Shown here one piece after another: positions 40,525-57,771 of a stretch of DNA of 64,000 nt (position 1 is its first letter; each line of letters starts with the position of its first letter). The position numbers and the translations under genes were made by a program. This DNA is from Candidatus Bathyarchaeum sp. (GTDB taxonomy: Archaea; Thermoproteota; Bathyarchaeia; Bathyarchaeales; Bathyarchaeaceae). The DNA is taken from positions 39,022-103,021 of the forward strand of contig JAOZIB010000025.1 in the NCBI GenBank assembly GCA_026014565.1. The letters are read 5' to 3'. Under the pieces are notes generated by a model. That model was given only the letters and a program-made list of their open reading frames with translations. It searched no databases and had not been told where the DNA came from.

Positions 40525-42492
40525 ATGCGGTTTGAATTAGTTGCGCCTTACAAGATGTCTCCGGGTCAAGCAGCAGCAGTGGAGAAACTTGTCAAAAATT
40601 TTGAGACAAAAAACAAACAGACTCTTCTAGGCATTACTGGAAGCGGAAAAACTTTTGTAATGGCAAATTTGATTAACAAACTGCAAAAACCTACACTCAT
40701 TCTTGCTCACAATAAGACTTTAGCTGCTCAACTATACGCAGAACTAAAAGAATTATTTCCAAATAACAGAGTAGAATACTTCATCTCATTTTATTCATAT
40801 TACCAACCCGAATCGTACCTGCCTACTACAGACATGTACATCGAAAAAGACTCGGATATCAACGAACAAATAGAAAAAATGCGAATGCATGCAGTTTCAA
40901 GTATTCTAAGCAGGGAAGATACAATAATCGTAGCCAGCATAAGTTGCATATACGGTTTAGGAAACCCTGAAGACTACGAAGGAATGGCAGCAAAATTAAG
41001 CACAGGAAAACCAATGAAACGTCGCGAACTGTTGCAGTCCCTTGTAAACATGCAATATGAACGCAACGACCAAGTTTTGGAACCCGGAAATTTTAGGGTA
41101 CGAGGCAATGTTGTAGACGTTGTTCCAGCTTACGAAGAAGACATTTTAAGAATCGAATTAGAAGACAACAAAATCAAAAACCTCAAAGAAGTACAAGCCC
41201 TCACTGGAGATATCAAACTAAGTCTAGATAAAATCACTTTATATCCTGCTCGCCAGTATGTTGTTCCAGAAGCAAAACAAAAACGAGCCTTAGACCAAAT
41301 ACAAAAAGAACTGGAAGATGAACTGCCAAAACTTCCGGCTCTTGAGGCTCAACGTCTTAGAAAACGTGTAACTTACGATATTGAAATGATAAAAGAAATG
41401 GGATATTGTAAAGGGATTGAAAATTATAGCCGTCATTTTGACGGCAGATGTACAGGTGAACCTCCATTTGTTTTGCTTGATTATTTCCCTAAAGATTATT
41501 TGCTGATAATAGACGAAAGTCACCAGACAATTCCACAATCACGGGCAATGTATAATGGAGATTATTCACGCAAAAAGAATTTAGTTGATTATGGTTTTCG
41601 CTTGTCATGTGCTTTTGATAACCGGCCTTTGAAATTTCACGAGTTTGAAAATAAGATGAGTAAAACTTTGTTTGTTTCTGCGACTCCAGCTGATTACGAA
41701 CTAAACAAAAGTGGAGAACCAGTGCAATTGATTACGAGACCTACAGGACTTCTAGATCCCGAGGTTGAAGTTCATCCCATTAAAGGTCAGATGAAACATT
41801 TGATTTCAGAAGCGAAAAAGACTATTGAAAGGGGTGACAGAATTCTAGTTACTACCCTCACTAAAAGAATGGCAGAAGATTTGACAGATTACTTGGTCAA
41901 AGAAGGCTTACGAGTTAGGTACATGCACTCAGAAATTGATAGCTTAGATAGAATCGAGCTAGTCAGGCAATTACGGGCTGGAGAATATGACATTCTTGTA
42001 GGAATAAACTTGTTACGTGAAGGCTTGGATGTGCCTGAAGTTTCTACTATTTTTATTTTAGATGCAGACAAAGAGGGCTTTCTAAGGGATGAGCGTAGTC
42101 TTATTCAGACCATTGGTCGGGCTGCCCGTAATGTTAACGGTAAGGTGTTTTTGTATGCCGATGAAATGACCCAATCCATGAAAAGGGCAATGGAGGTTAC
42201 CCGTTTTAGGCGTATGTTCCAGAAAAATTACAATAAAAAGCACAATATTACTCCGCGAACAATTGAGAAAAGTGTAGCTGAAAGTGAAAGAAAAATTAAA
42301 GGAACAAAACATTTGGCTAAAACTGAGATTCAAAGAAAGCTAATCGAGTTTGATGCCAAGATGCGGGCTGCGGCGGAACAGTTGGAATTTGAGAAGGCAA
42401 TTGAGTTTAGGGACCGCATTAAGGAGTTAGAGAGGTCCTTGGATTATGTTTTGAACAAATCTGAGAAAAAGTCTCGAAAAAAAGGTAAGTAA
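40525..42492 (+). CDS. uvrB: Excinuclease ABC subunit B
   Basis: GITGSGKTF, helicase motifs, and a C-terminal UVR domain (QLEFEKAIEFRDRIKELE). Confidence 0.95.
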   Translation: MRFELVAPYKMSPGQAAAVEKLVKNFETKNKQTLLGITGSGKTFVMANLINKLQKPTLILAHNKTLAAQLYAELKELFPNNRVEYFISFYSYYQPESYLPTTDMYIEKDSDINEQIEKMRMHAVSSILSREDTIIVASISCIYGLGNPEDYEGMAAKLSTGKPMKRRELLQSLVNMQYERNDQVLEPGNFRVRGNVVDVVPAYEEDILRIELEDNKIKNLKEVQALTGDIKLSLDKITLYPARQYVVPEAKQKRALDQIQKELEDELPKLPALEAQRLRKRVTYDIEMIKEMGYCKGIENYSRHFDGRCTGEPPFVLLDYFPKDYLLIIDESHQTIPQSRAMYNGDYSRKKNLVDYGFRLSCAFDNRPLKFHEFENKMSKTLFVSATPADYELNKSGEPVQLITRPTGLLDPEVEVHPIKGQMKHLISEAKKTIERGDRILVTTLTKRMAEDLTDYLVKEGLRVRYMHSEIDSLDRIELVRQLRAGEYDILVGINLLREGLDVPEVSTIFILDADKEGFLRDERSLIQTIGRAARNVNGKVFLYADEMTQSMKRAMEVTRFRRMFQKNYNKKHNITPRTIEKSVAESERKIKGTKHLAKTEIQRKLIEFDAKMRAAAEQLEFEKAIEFRDRIKELERSLDYVLNKSEKKSRKKGK

Positions 42493-42539
42493 AATAGGCT
42501 CCATTTGTTGTGAATACAACCTGTAACAGTGAAAAAAAT

Positions 42540-45416
42540 ATGAGAGATAGTATTTTCGTTAAGGGTGCACGAGAGCACAACTTGAAGAACGTTGATGTAG
42601 AATTACCTAGGAACAAGTTTATTGTAATTACGGGGTTATCTGGTTCAGGAAAATCTACATTAGCTTTTGACACCATCTATGCAGAAGGCCAACGAAGATA
42701 TGTAGAGAGTCTTTCAGCTTATGCGCGCCAGTTTTTAGGTTTGATGGATAAACCAGATGTGGATTCTATTGAGGGATTGTCGCCTGCAATTTCTATTGAG
42801 CAAAAAACTACGAGTAAGAATCCTCGTTCTACTGTTGGAACTGTAACCGAGATTTATGATTATTTGCGTTTGTTATTTGCCCGTATTGGGGTTCATCATT
42901 GTCCAAAATGTGATAGTTTAATTCATCCTCAAAGTCCAGAAAACATTACCAGCCTAATAATGAACGAACTAGGCAAAACCTTGACCTTTCTTGCACCTAT
43001 TATTAGGGGAATTAAGGGGACTCATGAAAAAGTTTTGGAAGATTTGAAAAAAGATGGATATACCAAAGTGCGGGTTGATCAGCAAATTTATGATATTGAA
43101 CAAATTGCCGAAATTAAAATGGAACGTTACGTGAAGCACTGGATTGAAGCAGTAATCGACACAGTAGAAATCGACAATGAAGAGCGCTCCAGAATCGCTG
43201 AAGCAGTAGAGCAAGCCTTGGAAGTTGGCAAAGGAACAATGATAGTTATCGATGGCAAATTGGACACCAAACAGTTGCGAGAAGTAGAACGTTTTGAGGC
43301 AGAAACAGTATACAGCACCTTTGGAGCGTGTCCAAATCACCCAGAAATTGTATTTGAAAGTCTAGAACCCCGCATGTTTTCCTTTAATTCACCATATGGA
43401 GCATGCCCAGAGTGTCACGGTCTGGGTAACACAATGGAACTTTCTGAAGACTTGGTTATTCCAAACAAAAATAAATCAATCATCGACGGGGCTTTGGCAG
43501 TTTATGGTAAGATGGATTTGAGTTGGAGAGCCCAACAGCTTGCTGCGGTGGGTAAAAAGTTTGGTTTTGACGTTTTTACTCCAATAAGGGATTTTACCAG
43601 AAAACAACTTGACGTGTTGTTGTATGGAACTAAAACGGCCATTAAAGGAAGTTGGTCAAACGGTGCCAGCATGTGGATGCGCAAAGGCTGGGAAGGGGTT
43701 ATCCCTCAAACCATGAGGTTATATCGTCAAACTGAAAGTGAAGGCAGAAAAGAAGCAATCATGAAGTTTATGAAAGAATCTCCGTGTGCTGCGTGCAACG
43801 GTAAACGTTTACGTCCAGTTATGCTGGGTGTTCGATTATTGGACAAAAACATAAGCGATGTTACCGAACTTTCCATAGAAGATGCGGTTGAGTTCTTTGG
43901 GGGGCTTTCAAACAAACTAAACGAAAAAGAGCTAGTAATCGCTAAACAAGTCCTTAAAGAAATTAATGAACGCTTAGGATTTCTAAAAAATGTCGGTTTA
44001 GGTTACTTAACTTTGGCTAGGTCTGCACGCACATTGTCAGGTGGGGAAGCTCAACGTATTCGTTTGGCTACGCAGATTGGCAGTAACTTGATGGGTGTTT
44101 TGTACATTTTGGATGAACCAAGTATTGGTTTACATCACAGAGATAATAAAAAACTCATAAGCACTCTGCACAGGCTACGAGATTTGGGTAACACTCTTAT
44201 CGTAGTGGAACATGACGAAGAAACCATCCTTAACTCCGATTATATTGTCGACATGGGTCCAGGAGCTGGTATTCGTGGAGGACAGATTGTTTGTCGAGGA
44301 AATGTTTCAGAAATTATGGAATGCAAAAATAGTCTCACGGGCAAGTATTTGTCAGGTAAATTAAAAATTGAGGTTCCTAAAAAACGTCGAAAACCTGTTG
44401 GTCACCTGATTCTTGAGGGCGCAAAGGAAAATAACCTCAAAAATGTGTCTGTTAAGCTTCCGTTAGGGGTTGTGTGTGGAATAACAGGAGTTTCAGGTTC
44501 AGGAAAAAGCACTTTGATGAACTTAACAGTCATGCCTGCGTTGCGGGCTAACTTTGGGGATCATGTGGACAAGGTTGGGAAACATAATTCAATTGATGTT
44601 CCAGAAGAAGTTCAGAGTGTTATCATAATTAATCAGGAGCCTATCGGTAAAACTCCTCGGAGTAATCCTGCGACATATACTAAATTGTTTGATGAGATTC
44701 GCAAACTCTTTGCTCAAACTAAAGATGCAAAAATGAAAGGATACAAACCTGGAAGATTCTCGTTCAACGTGAAGGGAGGCAGATGTGAAACATGTGGAGG
44801 TTATGGGGTTATTAGGATTGAAATGAATTTTCTGCCTGACGTTTACGTGAAATGCAGTGACTGCAAAGGCAAACGTTACAACAAAGAAACTCTGAGCATC
44901 AGATACAAAGGCAAAAACATTGCTGAGGTTTTGGACATGGAAGTTGAAGAAGCTGCAAAGTTCTTTGAAAATATTCCATCCATTTCTCGTAAACTTCAAA
45001 CCTTGCTGGATGTAGGCTTAGGGTATATCAAGTTGGGTCAGAGTTCAACAACCCTTTCGGGGGGAGAAAGCCAGCGCATCAAAATTACTCGTGAATTAAG
45101 TAAACAAAAATCGGGTCATGTGGTTTACATGTTGGATGAACCTACTACGGGTCTTCATTTTGATGATACTAAACGTTTGATTCAGGTGCTTAACAGTTTG
45201 GTAGATAAAGGAAACACTGTTTACGTGATTGAACACAACCTCGACGTTATAAAAAGTTGTGACTACCTGATTGATTTAGGTCCCGAAGGCGGAGATGAAG
45301 GCGGACAAATTATTGCACAAGGAACGCCCGAAGAAATCACTAAAGTTGAGGGTTCATACACAGGGAAGTTTCTAAAAGAGTGTAACACAAAAGATAGAAT
45401 TGGTTGTTATCATTGA
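42540..45416 (+). CDS. uvrA: Excinuclease ABC subunit A
   Basis: GAREHNLKNVDV, GLSGSGKSTLAFDTIYAEGQRRYVESLS, two ABC modules and zinc modules. I prefer the ATG at 42540 over the track start at 42510. Confidence 0.95.
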   Translation: MRDSIFVKGAREHNLKNVDVELPRNKFIVITGLSGSGKSTLAFDTIYAEGQRRYVESLSAYARQFLGLMDKPDVDSIEGLSPAISIEQKTTSKNPRSTVGTVTEIYDYLRLLFARIGVHHCPKCDSLIHPQSPENITSLIMNELGKTLTFLAPIIRGIKGTHEKVLEDLKKDGYTKVRVDQQIYDIEQIAEIKMERYVKHWIEAVIDTVEIDNEERSRIAEAVEQALEVGKGTMIVIDGKLDTKQLREVERFEAETVYSTFGACPNHPEIVFESLEPRMFSFNSPYGACPECHGLGNTMELSEDLVIPNKNKSIIDGALAVYGKMDLSWRAQQLAAVGKKFGFDVFTPIRDFTRKQLDVLLYGTKTAIKGSWSNGASMWMRKGWEGVIPQTMRLYRQTESEGRKEAIMKFMKESPCAACNGKRLRPVMLGVRLLDKNISDVTELSIEDAVEFFGGLSNKLNEKELVIAKQVLKEINERLGFLKNVGLGYLTLARSARTLSGGEAQRIRLATQIGSNLMGVLYILDEPSIGLHHRDNKKLISTLHRLRDLGNTLIVVEHDEETILNSDYIVDMGPGAGIRGGQIVCRGNVSEIMECKNSLTGKYLSGKLKIEVPKKRRKPVGHLILEGAKENNLKNVSVKLPLGVVCGITGVSGSGKSTLMNLTVMPALRANFGDHVDKVGKHNSIDVPEEVQSVIIINQEPIGKTPRSNPATYTKLFDEIRKLFAQTKDAKMKGYKPGRFSFNVKGGRCETCGGYGVIRIEMNFLPDVYVKCSDCKGKRYNKETLSIRYKGKNIAEVLDMEVEEAAKFFENIPSISRKLQTLLDVGLGYIKLGQSSTTLSGGESQRIKITRELSKQKSGHVVYMLDEPTTGLHFDDTKRLIQVLNSLVDKGNTVYVIEHNLDVIKSCDYLIDLGPEGGDEGGQIIAQGTPEEITKVEGSYTGKFLKECNTKDRIGCYH

Positions 45417-47017
45417 TTTCCTTGTCTGAACCGTCCCAGTTTAACAGTTCAGAAATCCCTACCCAGCCCGGAGTTTACATTTTCAAAAACAAAAAAGATG
45501 AAATCATCTACATTGGCAAAGCCAAAAACCTTAGGGCAAGAGTTCGAAGCTATTTTTCCAAGTCATATCAGACGCTTAAGACCCGTCATCTTGTCGCCCG
45601 AATCCAACACATAGAATGGATTATAGTTTACAATGAAGTAGAAGCCTTACTATTAGAAAACAAGCTAGTAAAAAAACACAAACCAAAATACAACATCAAC
45701 CTAAAAGATGCAAAAACCTTCGCATACATTGCCATATCAAAGGATGCTTATCCACGAATTTTCAGCACACGAAAACCCTCTTCAAGACTATACATGTTTG
45801 GCCCCTACACAGAAGGCTACCTGCGCCGTGAGTTGCAAAGGTTAGTTATTAAAATTTTTAAACTGCGCACTTGCAGAAAACTGCCAAAGCGAGCTTGTTT
45901 AAATTTTCACATTGGACTATGCACAGCTCCATGTGAAGGCAAAGTCACCAAACAGCAGTATGGTAAACAGGTAGAGCAAGCGCGTTCCTTTTTGATGGGA
46001 GACTACGAACAATTAACTGAAAAACTCACCGAACATATGCATAAGGCCTCTAAAGAAATGCATTACGAACGAGCACTGGAGTTGCGTAATCAGATTGCAT
46101 CGATTAAATTGCTTACACAGAAACAGGTTGTTGATTCTTTCCGAAAATTCGACCAAGATGTTATTGCCTTTCGCAGGCTTGGGGATAAAATACTGGTTGT
46201 TCAGATGGGCATACGAAAAGGAGTTTTGTTGGGCAAAAAAGAGTATACCTTGGATTTTGAGCTAGAGATTGAACAGATGTTTTTGAAAGAGTTTTACGAC
46301 AAGAACCGCATTCCTCAAGAAATTTTACTTAACATGGAAGCTTGGGCAGATAGTGAGGAAAAAACAGCGTTAGAGAAGTATTTTGCAACCATAGCGGGTG
46401 CTCCAGTTAACATTAGTGTTCCAACACGGGGCGATGAACTGTATTTAGTGAAATTGGCGGAAAAGAACATTGAAGCAAACCTAGATGAAGACAGCGCTCT
46501 AGTTGACCTTCAAACGGCGTTGAATTTACCGTCACTTCCACGGGTAATTGAGTGTTTTGATGTTTCTAACCTGGGAAAAGAGCACGTAGTTTCGGGAATG
46601 GTAAGGTTTACGGATGGAGTCCCAGATAAAAACAACTATCGTAGATTTAAAATGAAAACAGTAAAAGGTCAAGATGATTTTGCCAGCATGCAAGAAGCAG
46701 TAACCCGAAGATATCGGCGTTTGATTAATGAAGACTTGCCTCTTCCAGATTTGATTTTAGTTGATGGCGGGTCTGGACAGGTTTCGTCTGCGAATTTTGC
46801 TTTAAAGTCGTTGGGTTTACAGATTCCACTTATCGGTTTAGCCAAAAAGTATGAAGAGATTTTCTTGCCCGATGAAACAATCCCCCGTAGGTTTAAGAAA
46901 AACAGTAGAATGATGCTCATGTTGCGTAAGATTAGGGATGCTGCTCACAACTTCTCGATTAGTTATAGCCGAAAACGTAAACAGATGAAAACACGAGAAG
47001 AATTTAACAACAAATAA
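45404..47017 (+). CDS. uvrC: Excinuclease ABC subunit C, apparently lacking the C-terminal (HhH)2 domain
   Basis: GIY-YIG (GVYIFKNKKDEIIYIGKAKNLRARVRSY), UVR domain (YERALELRNQIASIK), and the endonuclease domain ending RDAAHNFSISYSRKRKQ. The protein stops about 15 aa later. It overlaps the uvrA end by 13 nt. Confidence 0.9.
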   Translation: MLSLISLSEPSQFNSSEIPTQPGVYIFKNKKDEIIYIGKAKNLRARVRSYFSKSYQTLKTRHLVARIQHIEWIIVYNEVEALLLENKLVKKHKPKYNINLKDAKTFAYIAISKDAYPRIFSTRKPSSRLYMFGPYTEGYLRRELQRLVIKIFKLRTCRKLPKRACLNFHIGLCTAPCEGKVTKQQYGKQVEQARSFLMGDYEQLTEKLTEHMHKASKEMHYERALELRNQIASIKLLTQKQVVDSFRKFDQDVIAFRRLGDKILVVQMGIRKGVLLGKKEYTLDFELEIEQMFLKEFYDKNRIPQEILLNMEAWADSEEKTALEKYFATIAGAPVNISVPTRGDELYLVKLAEKNIEANLDEDSALVDLQTALNLPSLPRVIECFDVSNLGKEHVVSGMVRFTDGVPDKNNYRRFKMKTVKGQDDFASMQEAVTRRYRRLINEDLPLPDLILVDGGSGQVSSANFALKSLGLQIPLIGLAKKYEEIFLPDETIPRRFKKNSRMMLMLRKIRDAAHNFSISYSRKRKQMKTREEFNNK

Positions 47018-54519: not shown

Positions 54520-54747
54520 ATGAAATATAAAATTGAAATTAAGCGAGAAAATTGCATTGCATGTGGTTCATGTTATTCCTTAAATCCGTCCCATTTTGAA
54601 CCTGATGACCAAGGAAAATCAACTGTTATCGGCGGAGAAACTGACGATTCAATTTCAATAGGGGAATTCGACGACACAGAGATTGAAAGTGCCAGAGACG
54701 CAGAAGATTCGTGTCCAGTATCCATAATCACAGTAATTGAGGTTTAA
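54520..54747 (+). CDS. Small single-cluster ferredoxin
   Basis: CIACGSC…SCP motif, acidic, 75 aa, with a GGGGGA SD. Confidence 0.7.
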   Translation: MKYKIEIKRENCIACGSCYSLNPSHFEPDDQGKSTVIGGETDDSISIGEFDDTEIESARDAEDSCPVSIITVIEV

Positions 54748-54824
54748 ATCTTAAAAATAGCGTAAAGTTTAAAGGCTTAGCAGAGGGTTCCCTCTAAATA
54801 CTTGTTTAGAATGAGGAATGATAG

Positions 54825-55367
54825 TTGAGTTCTGAAGAAACACTGGTGGAAAAAAAGACCAAAGTCCTCATAAAACTTCGCGGTTACAAAGTGGTTAAAA
54901 AAGAGGAAATAAAAAACGCCATTAGTTACACTCTCAAAATGAAAGATGGAAAAAAAGCCATCCTTTGGGCAATTACAGCAGATGCAACAGTAGGAGTTGC
55001 ATATGTTACACAACTCAAAAAATCCATGGATGATGCCGAAATCGAAAAAGGAATCATCACAACCATAGGGAAATACACCCACACCGCAAAATCGCGCTCA
55101 AAAACAAGTGGCATCGAATTAATTCCAAAAATATTTCCTGCATTTCAAATATTCAATCATGATTTCGTTTCAAAGCATGAACTTCTAACACCGGAAGAAA
55201 AAACTCAATTTCTTGAAGAAAGCAAAATTGTACCATATCAACTACCACGAATCAATGCTTCAGATCCTGCAATAATTGCAGTTGGTGGCACCCCTGGAAA
55301 TATTGTGAGAGTCATCAGAAACAGCAAAACCGCAGGAAAATATGTTTCATACAGATACATAGTCTAA
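54825..55367 (+). CDS. rpoH: RNA polymerase subunit Rpo5/RpoH with a eukaryote-like Rpb5 N-terminal domain
   Basis: The C-terminal 70 aa (HELLTPEEKTQFLEESKIVPYQLPRINASDPAIIAVGGTPGNIVRVIRNSKTAGKYVSYRYIV) are a classic RpoH. The N-terminal ~105 aa are collinear with the yeast Rpb5 N-domain (LRGY…, ILWAITADATVGVAYV…, EKGIITTIGKYTHTAK…IELIP). Confidence 0.85.
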   Translation: MSSEETLVEKKTKVLIKLRGYKVVKKEEIKNAISYTLKMKDGKKAILWAITADATVGVAYVTQLKKSMDDAEIEKGIITTIGKYTHTAKSRSKTSGIELIPKIFPAFQIFNHDFVSKHELLTPEEKTQFLEESKIVPYQLPRINASDPAIIAVGGTPGNIVRVIRNSKTAGKYVSYRYIV

Positions 55368-55547
55368 AGAGGCCGTAAAAAAGGGAGATAAAGTCTCCAG
55401 AACGAAGGTCATAATACGCATGCAACAACTAAGCATTTTTTGTTTATTTTTTTACACTATTACTTAATATTTAATCAAAATACCATATTTTCAAAAAATA
55501 TTTAAGAGAGATTGTTCAAAACCTTTTCTCCAAAAGAGAGAGCGTCA

Positions 55548-56105
55548 ATGGACATAACAACACTGTTGATTGCAACTGCATTAGCTATGGATTCGTTTTC
55601 AGTGGCGCTTGCAAATGGTCTAGCAACAAAAGTGTTCAATGTCTCGAAAGGCATTATGATAGGAACTTTTTTTGGATTTTTTCAAGCAATCATGCCAGTA
55701 ATTGGCTGGTACGCGGGAGTCCACATATTAGATCTAATTTCAGAAATTGATCACTGGGTAGCATTTGCACTATTAGCGTTCATTGGGTCCAGAATGATTT
55801 ATGAATCAACAAAAAAGGACAGCGAGAAAATTGTAAGCTCACTCACCATTAAAGTTCTTTTGATGCTTTCAATAGCTACAAGCATTGACGCTTTAGCAGT
55901 TGGTCTAAGTATATATGTTTTAGAAATTTCAATTATTTCACTTGCAATAGCAACAGGAATAATAACATTTTCGCTATCTTTCTTTGGTGTTTACATCGGG
56001 GGCAAATTTGGCTACATCTTACAAAATAAAGTTGAACCACTTGGAGGAGTTATCTTAATTATAATTGGACTACGAATATTCCTTGAACATTTAGGAATCA
56101 CATAA
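55548..56105 (+). CDS. mntP: Manganese efflux pump MntP family
   Basis: MDITTLLIATALAMDSFSVALANG and a second repeat SIATSIDALAVGLS. Confidence 0.8.
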   Translation: MDITTLLIATALAMDSFSVALANGLATKVFNVSKGIMIGTFFGFFQAIMPVIGWYAGVHILDLISEIDHWVAFALLAFIGSRMIYESTKKDSEKIVSSLTIKVLLMLSIATSIDALAVGLSIYVLEISIISLAIATGIITFSLSFFGVYIGGKFGYILQNKVEPLGGVILIIIGLRIFLEHLGIT

Positions 56106-56277: not shown

Positions 56278-56499
56278 TTGAAAACTGACACCGTTCAAAC
56301 GCTATGGGAGCAAAGAGACCACCGTGGAATACTTGCAGAAATACTAGAAACAGCAAAAGGTAAACAAGGCAAAACAAAAATTATGTACAGAGTTAATTTG
56401 AGCGTTAGTCAGGTCAATGAATATTTATCTTTCTTAACTAAAATGGGTTTTGTCAAAGTTCAAAACGAAAAAGGAAAAAACCTAAGAAACAACCAGTAA
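56278..56499 (+). CDS. Small winged-helix protein
   Basis: 73 aa, similar in layout to ORF 20755..21051 (ILAEILETAKGKQGKTKIMYRVNLSVSQVNEYLSFLTKMGFV). Confidence 0.5.
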   Translation: MKTDTVQTLWEQRDHRGILAEILETAKGKQGKTKIMYRVNLSVSQVNEYLSFLTKMGFVKVQNEKGKNLRNNQ

Positions 56500-56832: not shown

Positions 56833-56985
56833 ATGTCTTATGGTGGACCACGCGAAATGCACGATGCAGTCTGTTCTGAATGTGGGCAAAAATGTCAGGT
56901 TCCTTTCAAACCAGATGCAAGCAGACCTGTATATTGCCGAGAATGCTACGCAAAACGAAGACCCCCGAGAAGAAACAGATACTAA
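56833..56985 (+). CDS. 50-aa zinc-ribbon protein (CxxC-x17-CxxC type)
   Basis: Below the track cutoff. My translation gives MSYGGPREMHDAVCSECGQKCQVPFKPDASRPVYCRECYAKRRPPRRNRY. A GGAGGTG SD lies 8 nt upstream. It replaces the overlapping track ORF 56810..56998. Confidence 0.6.
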   Translation: MSYGGPREMHDAVCSECGQKCQVPFKPDASRPVYCRECYAKRRPPRRNRY

Positions 56986-57207: not shown

Positions 57208-57771
57208 TTATTCGTCGTAGTAGATTAGGTCTAAATCTTCAAGTTGTTCATGAAGTTTAGCAACTGCACGGTAGACGTCTTCTTCTTTGGTGGCGCCAGT
57301 GCAAACCAGTTTTCCGCTTGCGAACAAAAGGATTACTACTTTTGGTTCGTCCATACGGTAGATAAGTCCTGGGAACTGCTCGGGTTCATACATGGTCTTT
57401 CCAAGAGAGTAGGCACAATCTTCCAGCTCAATTCTTCCAAGAAGGTTAGCTGAAGCAACAATGTTAACTACTCTGATCTCAGGTTTACCTGTGATGATTA
57501 TGCCACTTTTTTTCAGTTCACGTACAACTTTTAGAACTGCTTTTTTAGATTCGTTTTCAGATTTTGCTCCAGTACAAACCATTTTTCCTGTGCTGAAAAT
57601 CAGGATGGCTGTCTTAGGTTTTTTTAATCTGAAAACCAATCCGGGAAACTTTTCTGGTCGATATTCAACTAATGGGTTTCCCTTAACAACGGCGTTTAGG
57701 TCTATGTTCTGATTCAAGGTGGCAGAGGATACAACATTTTCAATCCGAATAGAGTCTTCAAGCTTAGGCAT
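57208..57771 (-). CDS. tbp: TATA-box binding protein
   Basis: Two TBP repeats (IENVVSSATL…PGLVFRLKKPKTAILIFSTGKMVCTGAKS and VNIVASANL…PGLIYRMDEPKVVILLFASGKLVCTGA) and an acidic tail. Confidence 0.95.
   Translation of the reverse strand: MPKLEDSIRIENVVSSATLNQNIDLNAVVKGNPLVEYRPEKFPGLVFRLKKPKTAILIFSTGKMVCTGAKSENESKKAVLKVVRELKKSGIIITGKPEIRVVNIVASANLLGRIELEDCAYSLGKTMYEPEQFPGLIYRMDEPKVVILLFASGKLVCTGATKEEDVYRAVAKLHEQLEDLDLIYYDE

Follow-up and report, generated by a model that had tools for sequence, protein, structure and literature searches.

A two-domain form of RpoH in Bathyarchaeia with a predicted inactive Mrr-type fold at its N-terminus

Within the window, by which we mean the whole 64,000-nucleotide stretch of DNA analyzed here, one gene (54825..55367, plus strand) probably encodes the Rpo5/H subunit of the RNA polymerase of a Bathyarchaeon. 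It does so in a long form of two domains, of which the N-terminal is an inactive Mrr-type fold. That this is a genuine and conserved RpoH with its two domains in the order of eukaryotic Rpb5, as had been proposed from the sequence, is upheld by more than 300 homologues and by comparison of a predicted model with known structures, where the 34 best matches in the PDB are all two-domain Rpb5. The canonical archaeal RpoH (Rpo5) is a protein of ~80 aa (4qiw_H, 8cro_H, 7ok0_H). The long form differs from it in having an additional N-terminal domain of 105 aa, and in the position of its gene, which does not lie upstream of rpoB.

Archaeal RpoH has been described as lacking an N-terminal extension, with the N-terminal module being eukaryotic (PMC3906176, PMC1802627), and in a survey of PD-(D/E)XK proteins the family Rpb5-N is entered under 'Eukaryota' (PMC3424549). 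The long form goes unmentioned where Rpo5 is discussed in recent reviews and in a 2026 study on how the small subunits of archaea evolved. In the open full-text literature we found no published description of a long RpoH, mention in subscription papers being possible, and the form appears to be undescribed in the searchable literature. The original prediction had allowed that it might be both common and documented in this lineage. It is common, with more than 300 clusters and more than 40 genomes, but no paper describing it was found.

The gene and its C-terminal domain

The gene comprises an open reading frame of 180 aa plus the stop, and begins with TTG. This start, at 54825, is forced by in-frame stops lying directly 5′ to it (..tga tag TTG). 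The sole other candidate is an ATG at codon 39, the use of which would truncate the fold. Homologues of 174-181 aa, more than 300 in number, retain residues 1-38, with E9 and R19 invariant. A Shine-Dalgarno-like sequence (GAGGA, 54813..54817, plus strand) can be read 7 nt 5′ of the TTG, and a possible TATA box (TTTAAA, 54768..54773, plus strand) lies ~52 nt 5′ of the start codon. Beyond the stop, a T-rich run (TTTTTTGTTTATTTTTTT, 55436..55453, plus strand) is a putative oligo-T terminator. With a likely terminator at this position, the long rpoH gene would be monocistronic.

There are no polymerase genes among the neighbors of the long rpoH, and rpoB is absent from the whole 64-kb window. The gene is flanked by those for a ferredoxin (54520-54747), an MntP pump (55512-56105) and TBP (57208-57771, minus strand). 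Other genes nearby encode a wHTH protein, a small zinc finger and ACS/CODH.

The C-terminal domain of RpoH docks on the largest subunit (Rpo1) in all archaeal and eukaryotic polymerases. The C-terminal 75 residues of our protein (aa 106-180, 55140..55364, plus strand) are an ordinary RpoH domain. This part of the original prediction was borne out by a match of residues 107-179 to PF01191 (E 5e-25, 87.4 bits, cutoff 23.5), and by a score of 84.6 bits for the NCBIfam equivalog model NF007129 (RpoH), which passes the cutoff of 83. When the sequences of the PDB were searched, the best matches were archaeal RpoH chains at ~65 bits over residues 106-180, whereas Rpb5 chains matched the C-domain at 51-58 bits. 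Several of the eukaryotic Rpb5 chains extend into the N-terminal half, with residues 54-205 of the Arabidopsis protein aligned to residues 33-180. The fold is likewise that of RpoH. In a Foldseek comparison with solved RpoH chains (six cryo-EM and four crystal entries) the domain gave TMt 0.82-0.89, with rmsd of 1.5-1.7 Å and 43-49% identity.

The N-terminal domain, Mrr nucleases and Rpb5

We predicted the structure of the full-length protein with AF2, run without templates on a 34-sequence alignment. The model has a mean pLDDT of 90.9 and a pTM of 0.81, and contains a standard RpoH C-domain. The Rpb5 chains that make up its 34 best Foldseek matches in the PDB come from Pol I, II, III, IV and V and from ASFV. 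The whole chain superposes on Rpb5 with TMq up to 0.82, TMt 0.72 and an rmsd of 2.8 Å over ~200 columns, so the superposition that had been proposed as a check matched the whole-chain geometry. A short archaeal RpoH covers the C-terminal half of the model only (TMq 0.39). The two domains are thus predicted to be packed as in eukaryotic Rpb5, where the predicted inter-domain geometry could have been influenced by the presence of Rpb5 structures in the AF2 training set.

As assigned by profile and by fold topology, the N-terminal 105 residues (54825..55139, plus strand) are a restriction-endonuclease fold of the Mrr family that has lost its catalytic residues, an inactive PD-(D/E)XK module and putative lower jaw. 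The Pfam family Mrr_cat (PF04471) matches residues 15-100 at 28.6-30.5 bits, passing the cutoff of 21, and NA-iREase1 (PF22722), an inactive restriction endonuclease family, matches more weakly. All 15 archaeal N-domains tested match Mrr_cat. The model PF03871 (RNA_pol_Rpb5_N) has no match in the window protein and matched just one of the 15 (E 0.027); this model spans yeast residues 6-99 only, that is, the helix and insertion region without the second half of the domain. The AF2 model gives the N-domain an a-b-b-b-a-b-a-b topology at pLDDT 93.

In a joint alignment the GGID and QAK (QxK) catalytic motifs of Mrr are aligned with NAISY and with residues of the type WAI, WCI or RIP. The catalytic D...(D/E/Q)xK residues are missing from all the archaeal and eukaryotic N-domains of that alignment, and their absence rules out an active nuclease. 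The RpoH-linked domain also differs from Mrr-type domains in never standing alone. Searching 1.84e9 (1.84 billion) representative sequences by phmmer with the N-domain alone gave 39 matches. With the exception of two repeat proteins, these were RpoH proteins with both domains (176-191 aa) or fragments of them left by truncation or frameshift, and there were no stand-alone nucleases or eukaryotic Rpb5 among them. Since the matches are confined to RpoH fusions, the N-domain is a distinct family found linked to RpoH only.

The resemblance of this domain to Rpb5-N goes beyond chance. When a profile built from 15 archaeal N-domains was run alone by hmmsearch against all PDB sequences, the eight best matches were Rpb5 chains, of which the seven metazoan and plant proteins had E values from 3.7e-7 to 4e-5. 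Profile positions 28-91 align with residues 54-117 of human Rpb5. No nuclease was found below E 0.3, though E. coli Mrr itself gave nothing significant against the PDB, which thus offers little as a control for sequences of the Mrr type. In a Kariarchaeaceae long RpoH the alignment with human RPB5 runs over residues 61-209 as one HMMER domain (E 3e-17). The window protein is indeed colinear with yeast Rpb5 along its whole length, and the four motif pairings first noted by eye are recovered, those at RGY, VGV and G-I-x-V...T..A by both MAFFT and hhalign and that at IE by MAFFT.

The three families were compared using hhalign, with inputs of 61 archaeal N-domains, four eukaryotic N-domains and eight bacterial Mrr catalytic domains (E. 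coli Mrr and seven plasmid homologues). The yeast Rpb5 sequence used is 100% identical to 1dzf_A; those of K. phaffii and S. pombe were taken from PDB alignments, and the human sequence was checked over residues 12-50 and 57-209. The archaeal N-domain matches Rpb5-N with 94.4% probability (E 9e-8, score 46.5), and with 90.7% over 108 columns in global mode. It matches bacterial Mrr with 96.5% probability (E 8e-10, score 58.5). Rpb5-N and Mrr match one another with a probability of just 14% and a score of 25.2, and the matches of eukaryotic Rpb5-N to Mrr_cat are marginal (E 0.003 to 0.1) or absent. The archaeal N-domain is therefore intermediate in sequence, since it is like both Mrr and Rpb5-N while these two scarcely match each other. 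By these profile comparisons it is best described as an Mrr-like inactive domain lying between the two, which bridges the Mrr nucleases and the eukaryotic jaw.

The bridge is not quite symmetrical. Pfam, hhalign and Foldseek all place the N-domain slightly nearer to active Mrr nucleases than to Rpb5-N. When the N-domain model alone was used as the Foldseek query, EndoMS/NucS (E 2e-5), MspJI, AF1548 and EcoT38I ranked above Rpb5 (E ~9e-3), the TM-scores being similar for nucleases and Rpb5 at 0.6-0.7. The description as an Rpb5 N-domain thus stands in so far as the similarity to Rpb5-N is significant; it does not stand as a family assignment, with Mrr_cat passed, PF03871 failed and Mrr giving the higher score. 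Nor is the domain nearer to Rpb5-N than to generic nucleases, as the original prediction needed it to be. Distances between N-domains are saturated and added nothing beyond hhalign. With a four-sequence HMM of the eukaryotic N-domain, the window protein scored only 9 bits and other long forms as much as 23 bits, and Asgard N-domains were not favored over those of Bathyarchaeia.

Eukaryotic Rpb5 (RPABC1; PF03871 and PF01191; yeast 1dzf, human POLR2E) has a PD-(D/E)XK-fold N-domain followed by Rpb5_C, in the same order as the archaeal protein, and in both the nuclease active site has been lost. The archaeal N-domain is shorter, at ~105 aa compared with ~140. It lacks the extended N-terminal helix, and also an insertion of 15-25 residues between the first two strands that is present in eukaryotic N-domains only (MAFFT and hhalign). 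The C-domain of the archaeal protein is the nearer of the two to archaeal RpoH. The charge differs as well. The N-domain of the window protein has a net charge of +9 and a pI of 9.7, and 58 archaeal N-domains, mostly from Bathyarchaeia, have a median net charge of +8 and a pI of 9.7, whereas eukaryotic N-domains have a pI of ~5-7. The charge varies within the archaea too, being acidic in Hadarchaeota, as in eukaryotes, and neutral in Kariarchaeaceae.

Distribution and genomic setting of the long form

The homologues of the window protein form more than 300 clusters at 90% identity, and its named relatives are called 'Candidatus Bathyarchaeota archaeon'. Those among the 120 matches listed are 174-181 aa in length and 77-94% identical, and each has both PF01191 and PF04471. 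Database pipelines already annotate long forms as RpoH with these two families. The N-domain is well conserved in the Bathyarchaeal alignment (A4), where pairs of sequences are on average 46% identical over it and 59% over the C-domain. Identity among archaeal long forms falls to 26-40%, so that they are deeply diverse. The linker IELIPxxFPxFxIF is conserved.

The wider occurrence was examined by scanning a single genome for each GTDB species with a 5-sequence alignment as the query, keeping the best 80 loci and analyzing their open reading frames. Among these loci the long form was found in more than 40 genomes labeled Bathyarchaeia or Bathyarchaeota, six of which are complete chromosomes. 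It is also present in Asgard-labeled MAGs (Ca. Sifarchaeum, Ca. Wukongarchaeum, Helarchaeota and two Heimdallarchaeota lineages), in Hadarchaeota and a near-identical MAG labeled Thermococci, and in a few other archaea. Its assignment to Kariarchaeaceae (Heimdall) was also named independently of the GTDB scan. The short form was seen in Nitrososphaerota, Caldarchaeales, Desulfurococcales, Methanomethylicia, Nezhaarchaeales, Hydrothermarchaeota, DPANN groups and others. By mechanical calling it is 63-123 aa long, and 146 aa in one Methanomethylicia MAG. Other N-terminal additions to RpoH occur elsewhere, namely a SAP-like motif (P0299) and three tandem Mrr-like modules (L023 and L050).

The two forms differ sharply in their genomic setting. 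A short rpoH is followed directly by rpoB at 26 of 27 loci, the lone exception being a truncated locus, while rpoB was not found within 5 kb of the long-form gene at any of 58 loci. The location of rpoH outside the rpoB operon in the long-form lineages matters for operon-based annotation and for work with marker genes.

Role and origin of the jaw

The lower jaw of Pol II, next to the downstream DNA, is made by the N-domain of Rpb5 (PMC2847245, PMC1802627). The inactive nuclease domain of the long RpoH would, by analogy, occupy the lower jaw adjacent to the downstream DNA duplex. The strong positive charge of the Bathyarchaeial N-domains suits a non-catalytic contact with that duplex, and in Bathyarchaeia the basic domain would probably grip the downstream DNA without cleaving it. 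Such a grip would probably lend stability to open and elongation complexes, and would resemble the part played by Rpo13 in Sulfolobales, an accessory element close to Rpo5 that contacts downstream DNA (PMC3479171, PMC7289017). The likeness to Rpo13 is one of function only, and in the role suggested for the basic N-domain; Rpo13, limited to Thermoprotei, is a subunit in its own right, small, helical and unrelated. The charge argument does not generalize, as the N-domains of Hadarchaeota and eukaryotes are acidic. Alternatively or additionally, the domain may offer a docking surface for factors, as for eukaryotic Rpb5.

In the literature on how RNA polymerases evolved, the N-terminal jaw of Rpb5 is regarded as an innovation of eukaryotes; its origin may be archaeal. 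We lean, by a little, toward a history in which an inactivated Mrr-type nuclease was fused to RpoH in archaea before the eukaryotes arose, the Rpb5 jaw being a diverged descendant that gained its insertion and turned acidic. More tentatively, and with somewhat less than even confidence, one could trace the jaw to a long subunit that survives in Bathyarchaeia, Hadarchaeota and several Asgard including Heimdallarchaeia, and that was inherited and remodeled by eukaryotes. The archaeal forms would then be the missing intermediates between nuclease and Rpb5-N. If this is true, the origin of the jaw moves from eukaryotes into archaea, its donor was a domesticated Mrr-type restriction nuclease, and natural intermediates are available for probing how the jaw functions at the downstream DNA channel. 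That the eukaryotic jaw descends from an archaeal fusion is plausible but unproven, because the N-domain lies slightly nearer to the Mrr nucleases.

The main rival is a convergent fusion, in which an Mrr-like domain joined RpoH independently in archaea and in the eukaryotic stem, making the archaeal protein an analogue of Rpb5 and not its ancestor. A bona fide member of Mrr_cat that scores slightly nearer to nucleases than to Rpb5-N is what this would give, as is the patchy occurrence of the long form across Bathyarchaeia, some Asgard and Hadarchaeota. The SAP-like and tandem Mrr-like additions show that other modules, too, have been accreted at the N-terminus of RpoH. Moreover, the eukaryotes are not grouped with the Asgard long forms either by the scores of the eukaryotic HMM or by a neighbor-joining tree of the C-domain. 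This tree (76 columns, 200 bootstraps) was without resolution, with the eukaryotes and a DPANN sequence sharing a long branch and the long forms not gathered in any one supported clade. We nevertheless consider independent fusion unlikely. The archaeal and eukaryotic proteins agree in family, in position, in the linker and in how the two domains are predicted to pack, and the same catalytic residues have been lost in both. Rpb5-N is far nearer to the archaeal N-domain than to bacterial Mrr (hhalign scores of 46.5 compared with 25.2, and probabilities of 94% compared with 14%), and several MAGs labeled as Asgard have the long form.

A different proposal concerns the protein itself, which might be a paralogue that is not part of the core polymerase; genomes with it would keep a short RpoH at rpoB, and the long protein would serve as an alternative subunit, as a regulatory one, or as a factor docking on RNAP by its RpoH-like domain. 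This would accord with the complete separation of the long form from rpoB (0 of 58 loci), which is unlike the short rpoH (26 of 27). One MAG (JASFPO01) has two different long copies, and in the 2026 study the accession of a Bathyarchaeota Rpo5 lies two numbers from that of Rpo1, a hint that some Bathyarchaeota-labeled MAG has its rpoH in an operon. We think it improbable all the same. The C-domain is conserved as an orthologue would be, with its 43-49% identity to solved RpoH and its passing of the NCBIfam equivalog cutoff, and PF01191 serves as a single-copy archaeal marker (PMC7554672). None of the 27 short rpoH loci, 26 of them rpoB-linked, was labeled Bathyarchaeota. No assembly among the best 80 loci gave both the long and the short form, which is weak evidence as it comes from one peptide pattern.

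Reading the gene as a core Rpo5/H of archaeal descent, we find very little to recommend transfer of an Rpb5 gene from a eukaryote or a giant virus into archaea. The two-domain Rpb5 of eukaryotes and that of ASFV-like viruses do both match the model. However, the C-domain is archaeal, scoring higher with archaeal RpoH (65 bits) than with any Rpb5 (51-58), and the N-domain is more nuclease-like, being nearer to Mrr nucleases than any Rpb5-N is, devoid of the eukaryotic insertion and failing PF03871. The deep diversity of the archaeal forms, down to 26-40% identity, also speaks against a transfer, and we rejected it on the character of the two domains. Finally, a fusion created by annotation or assembly, in which the frame of a nuclease gene had been run on into a short rpoH, has nothing beyond the unusual TTG start in its favor and a negligible probability. 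It was rejected because the architecture recurs across hundreds of independent contigs and six complete chromosomes; the frame is single and unbroken with stops upstream, the IELIPxxFPxFxIF linker is conserved, and the single-chain AF2 model is confident.

Position of rpoH relative to rpoB

Linkage to rpoB divides the short rpoH genes, which encode the C-domain form only, from the long genes, which encode an Mrr-like N-domain followed by the RpoH C-domain, and the dichotomy is clean. In the GTDB scan (one genome per species, best 80 loci, L008-L087), in 26 of 27 short-form loci rpoH abuts or overlaps the beginning of rpoB, whereas rpoB lies within 5 kb of the long gene in none of 58. One short rpoH-rpoB operon, in archaeon isolate B48_G17 (L071:4956-8710), encodes an RpoH with 64% identity to Bathyarchaeal C-domains, and it bears on the question of whether a short, operon-linked rpoH has been kept in relatives of Bathyarchaeia.

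Additional modules on subunit H

In P0299, a 142-aa protein from a 66 kb Logan contig, the RpoH C-domain follows a DNA-binding motif of SAP-like type (PF18953, E = 1.7e-4; PF02037, E = 0.03). The motif is an N-terminal accretion on subunit H of a different kind from the N-domain of the long form. In archaeon Dive96_bin2.176 a mechanically called 436-aa ORF (L023:1233-2543) carries three tandem modules resembling Mrr_cat (PF04471), the family matched by the long-form N-domain, and then the RpoH C-domain. A near-identical protein is encoded in Heimdallarchaeota S139 (L050:142-966) by a 274-aa ORF whose start lies 142 nt in from the locus end. At the other terminus, the long RpoH of Thermoproteota archaeon S9B3_HD70 (L021:4899-5636) is extended by an acidic tail containing ...EREEEEGEELEWEEEEI.

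Neighboring genes

In one long-form clade the TFB gene is convergent with rpoH, with 4 nt between them (L006:1206-2715 and L007:1163-2672). The TBP gene of the window (57208-57771, minus strand) lies 1.8 kb downstream of rpoH on the opposite strand. The closeness of rpoH to both genes may be coincidence. Between rpoH and TBP are genes for a wHTH protein (HTH_45; 56278-56499) and a 50-aa treble-clef zinc-finger protein (56833-56985, plus strand; PF23477, E = 1e-19). Two further mechanically called ORFs, which lie in different frames, overlap the latter. This archaeal window also has a complete uvrB-uvrA-uvrC cluster of bacterial type (40525-47017, plus strand).

Duplicate copies and suspect bins

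The Bathyarchaeota MAG JASFPO01 contains two different long rpoH genes (L014 and L039) belonging to different Bathyarchaeal clusters; either the bin is chimeric or the genes are true paralogues. A contig labelled Candidatus Krumholzibacteriaceae bacterium (L067) bears a Bathyarchaeia-type long rpoH, and the bacterial MAG is therefore probably contaminated.
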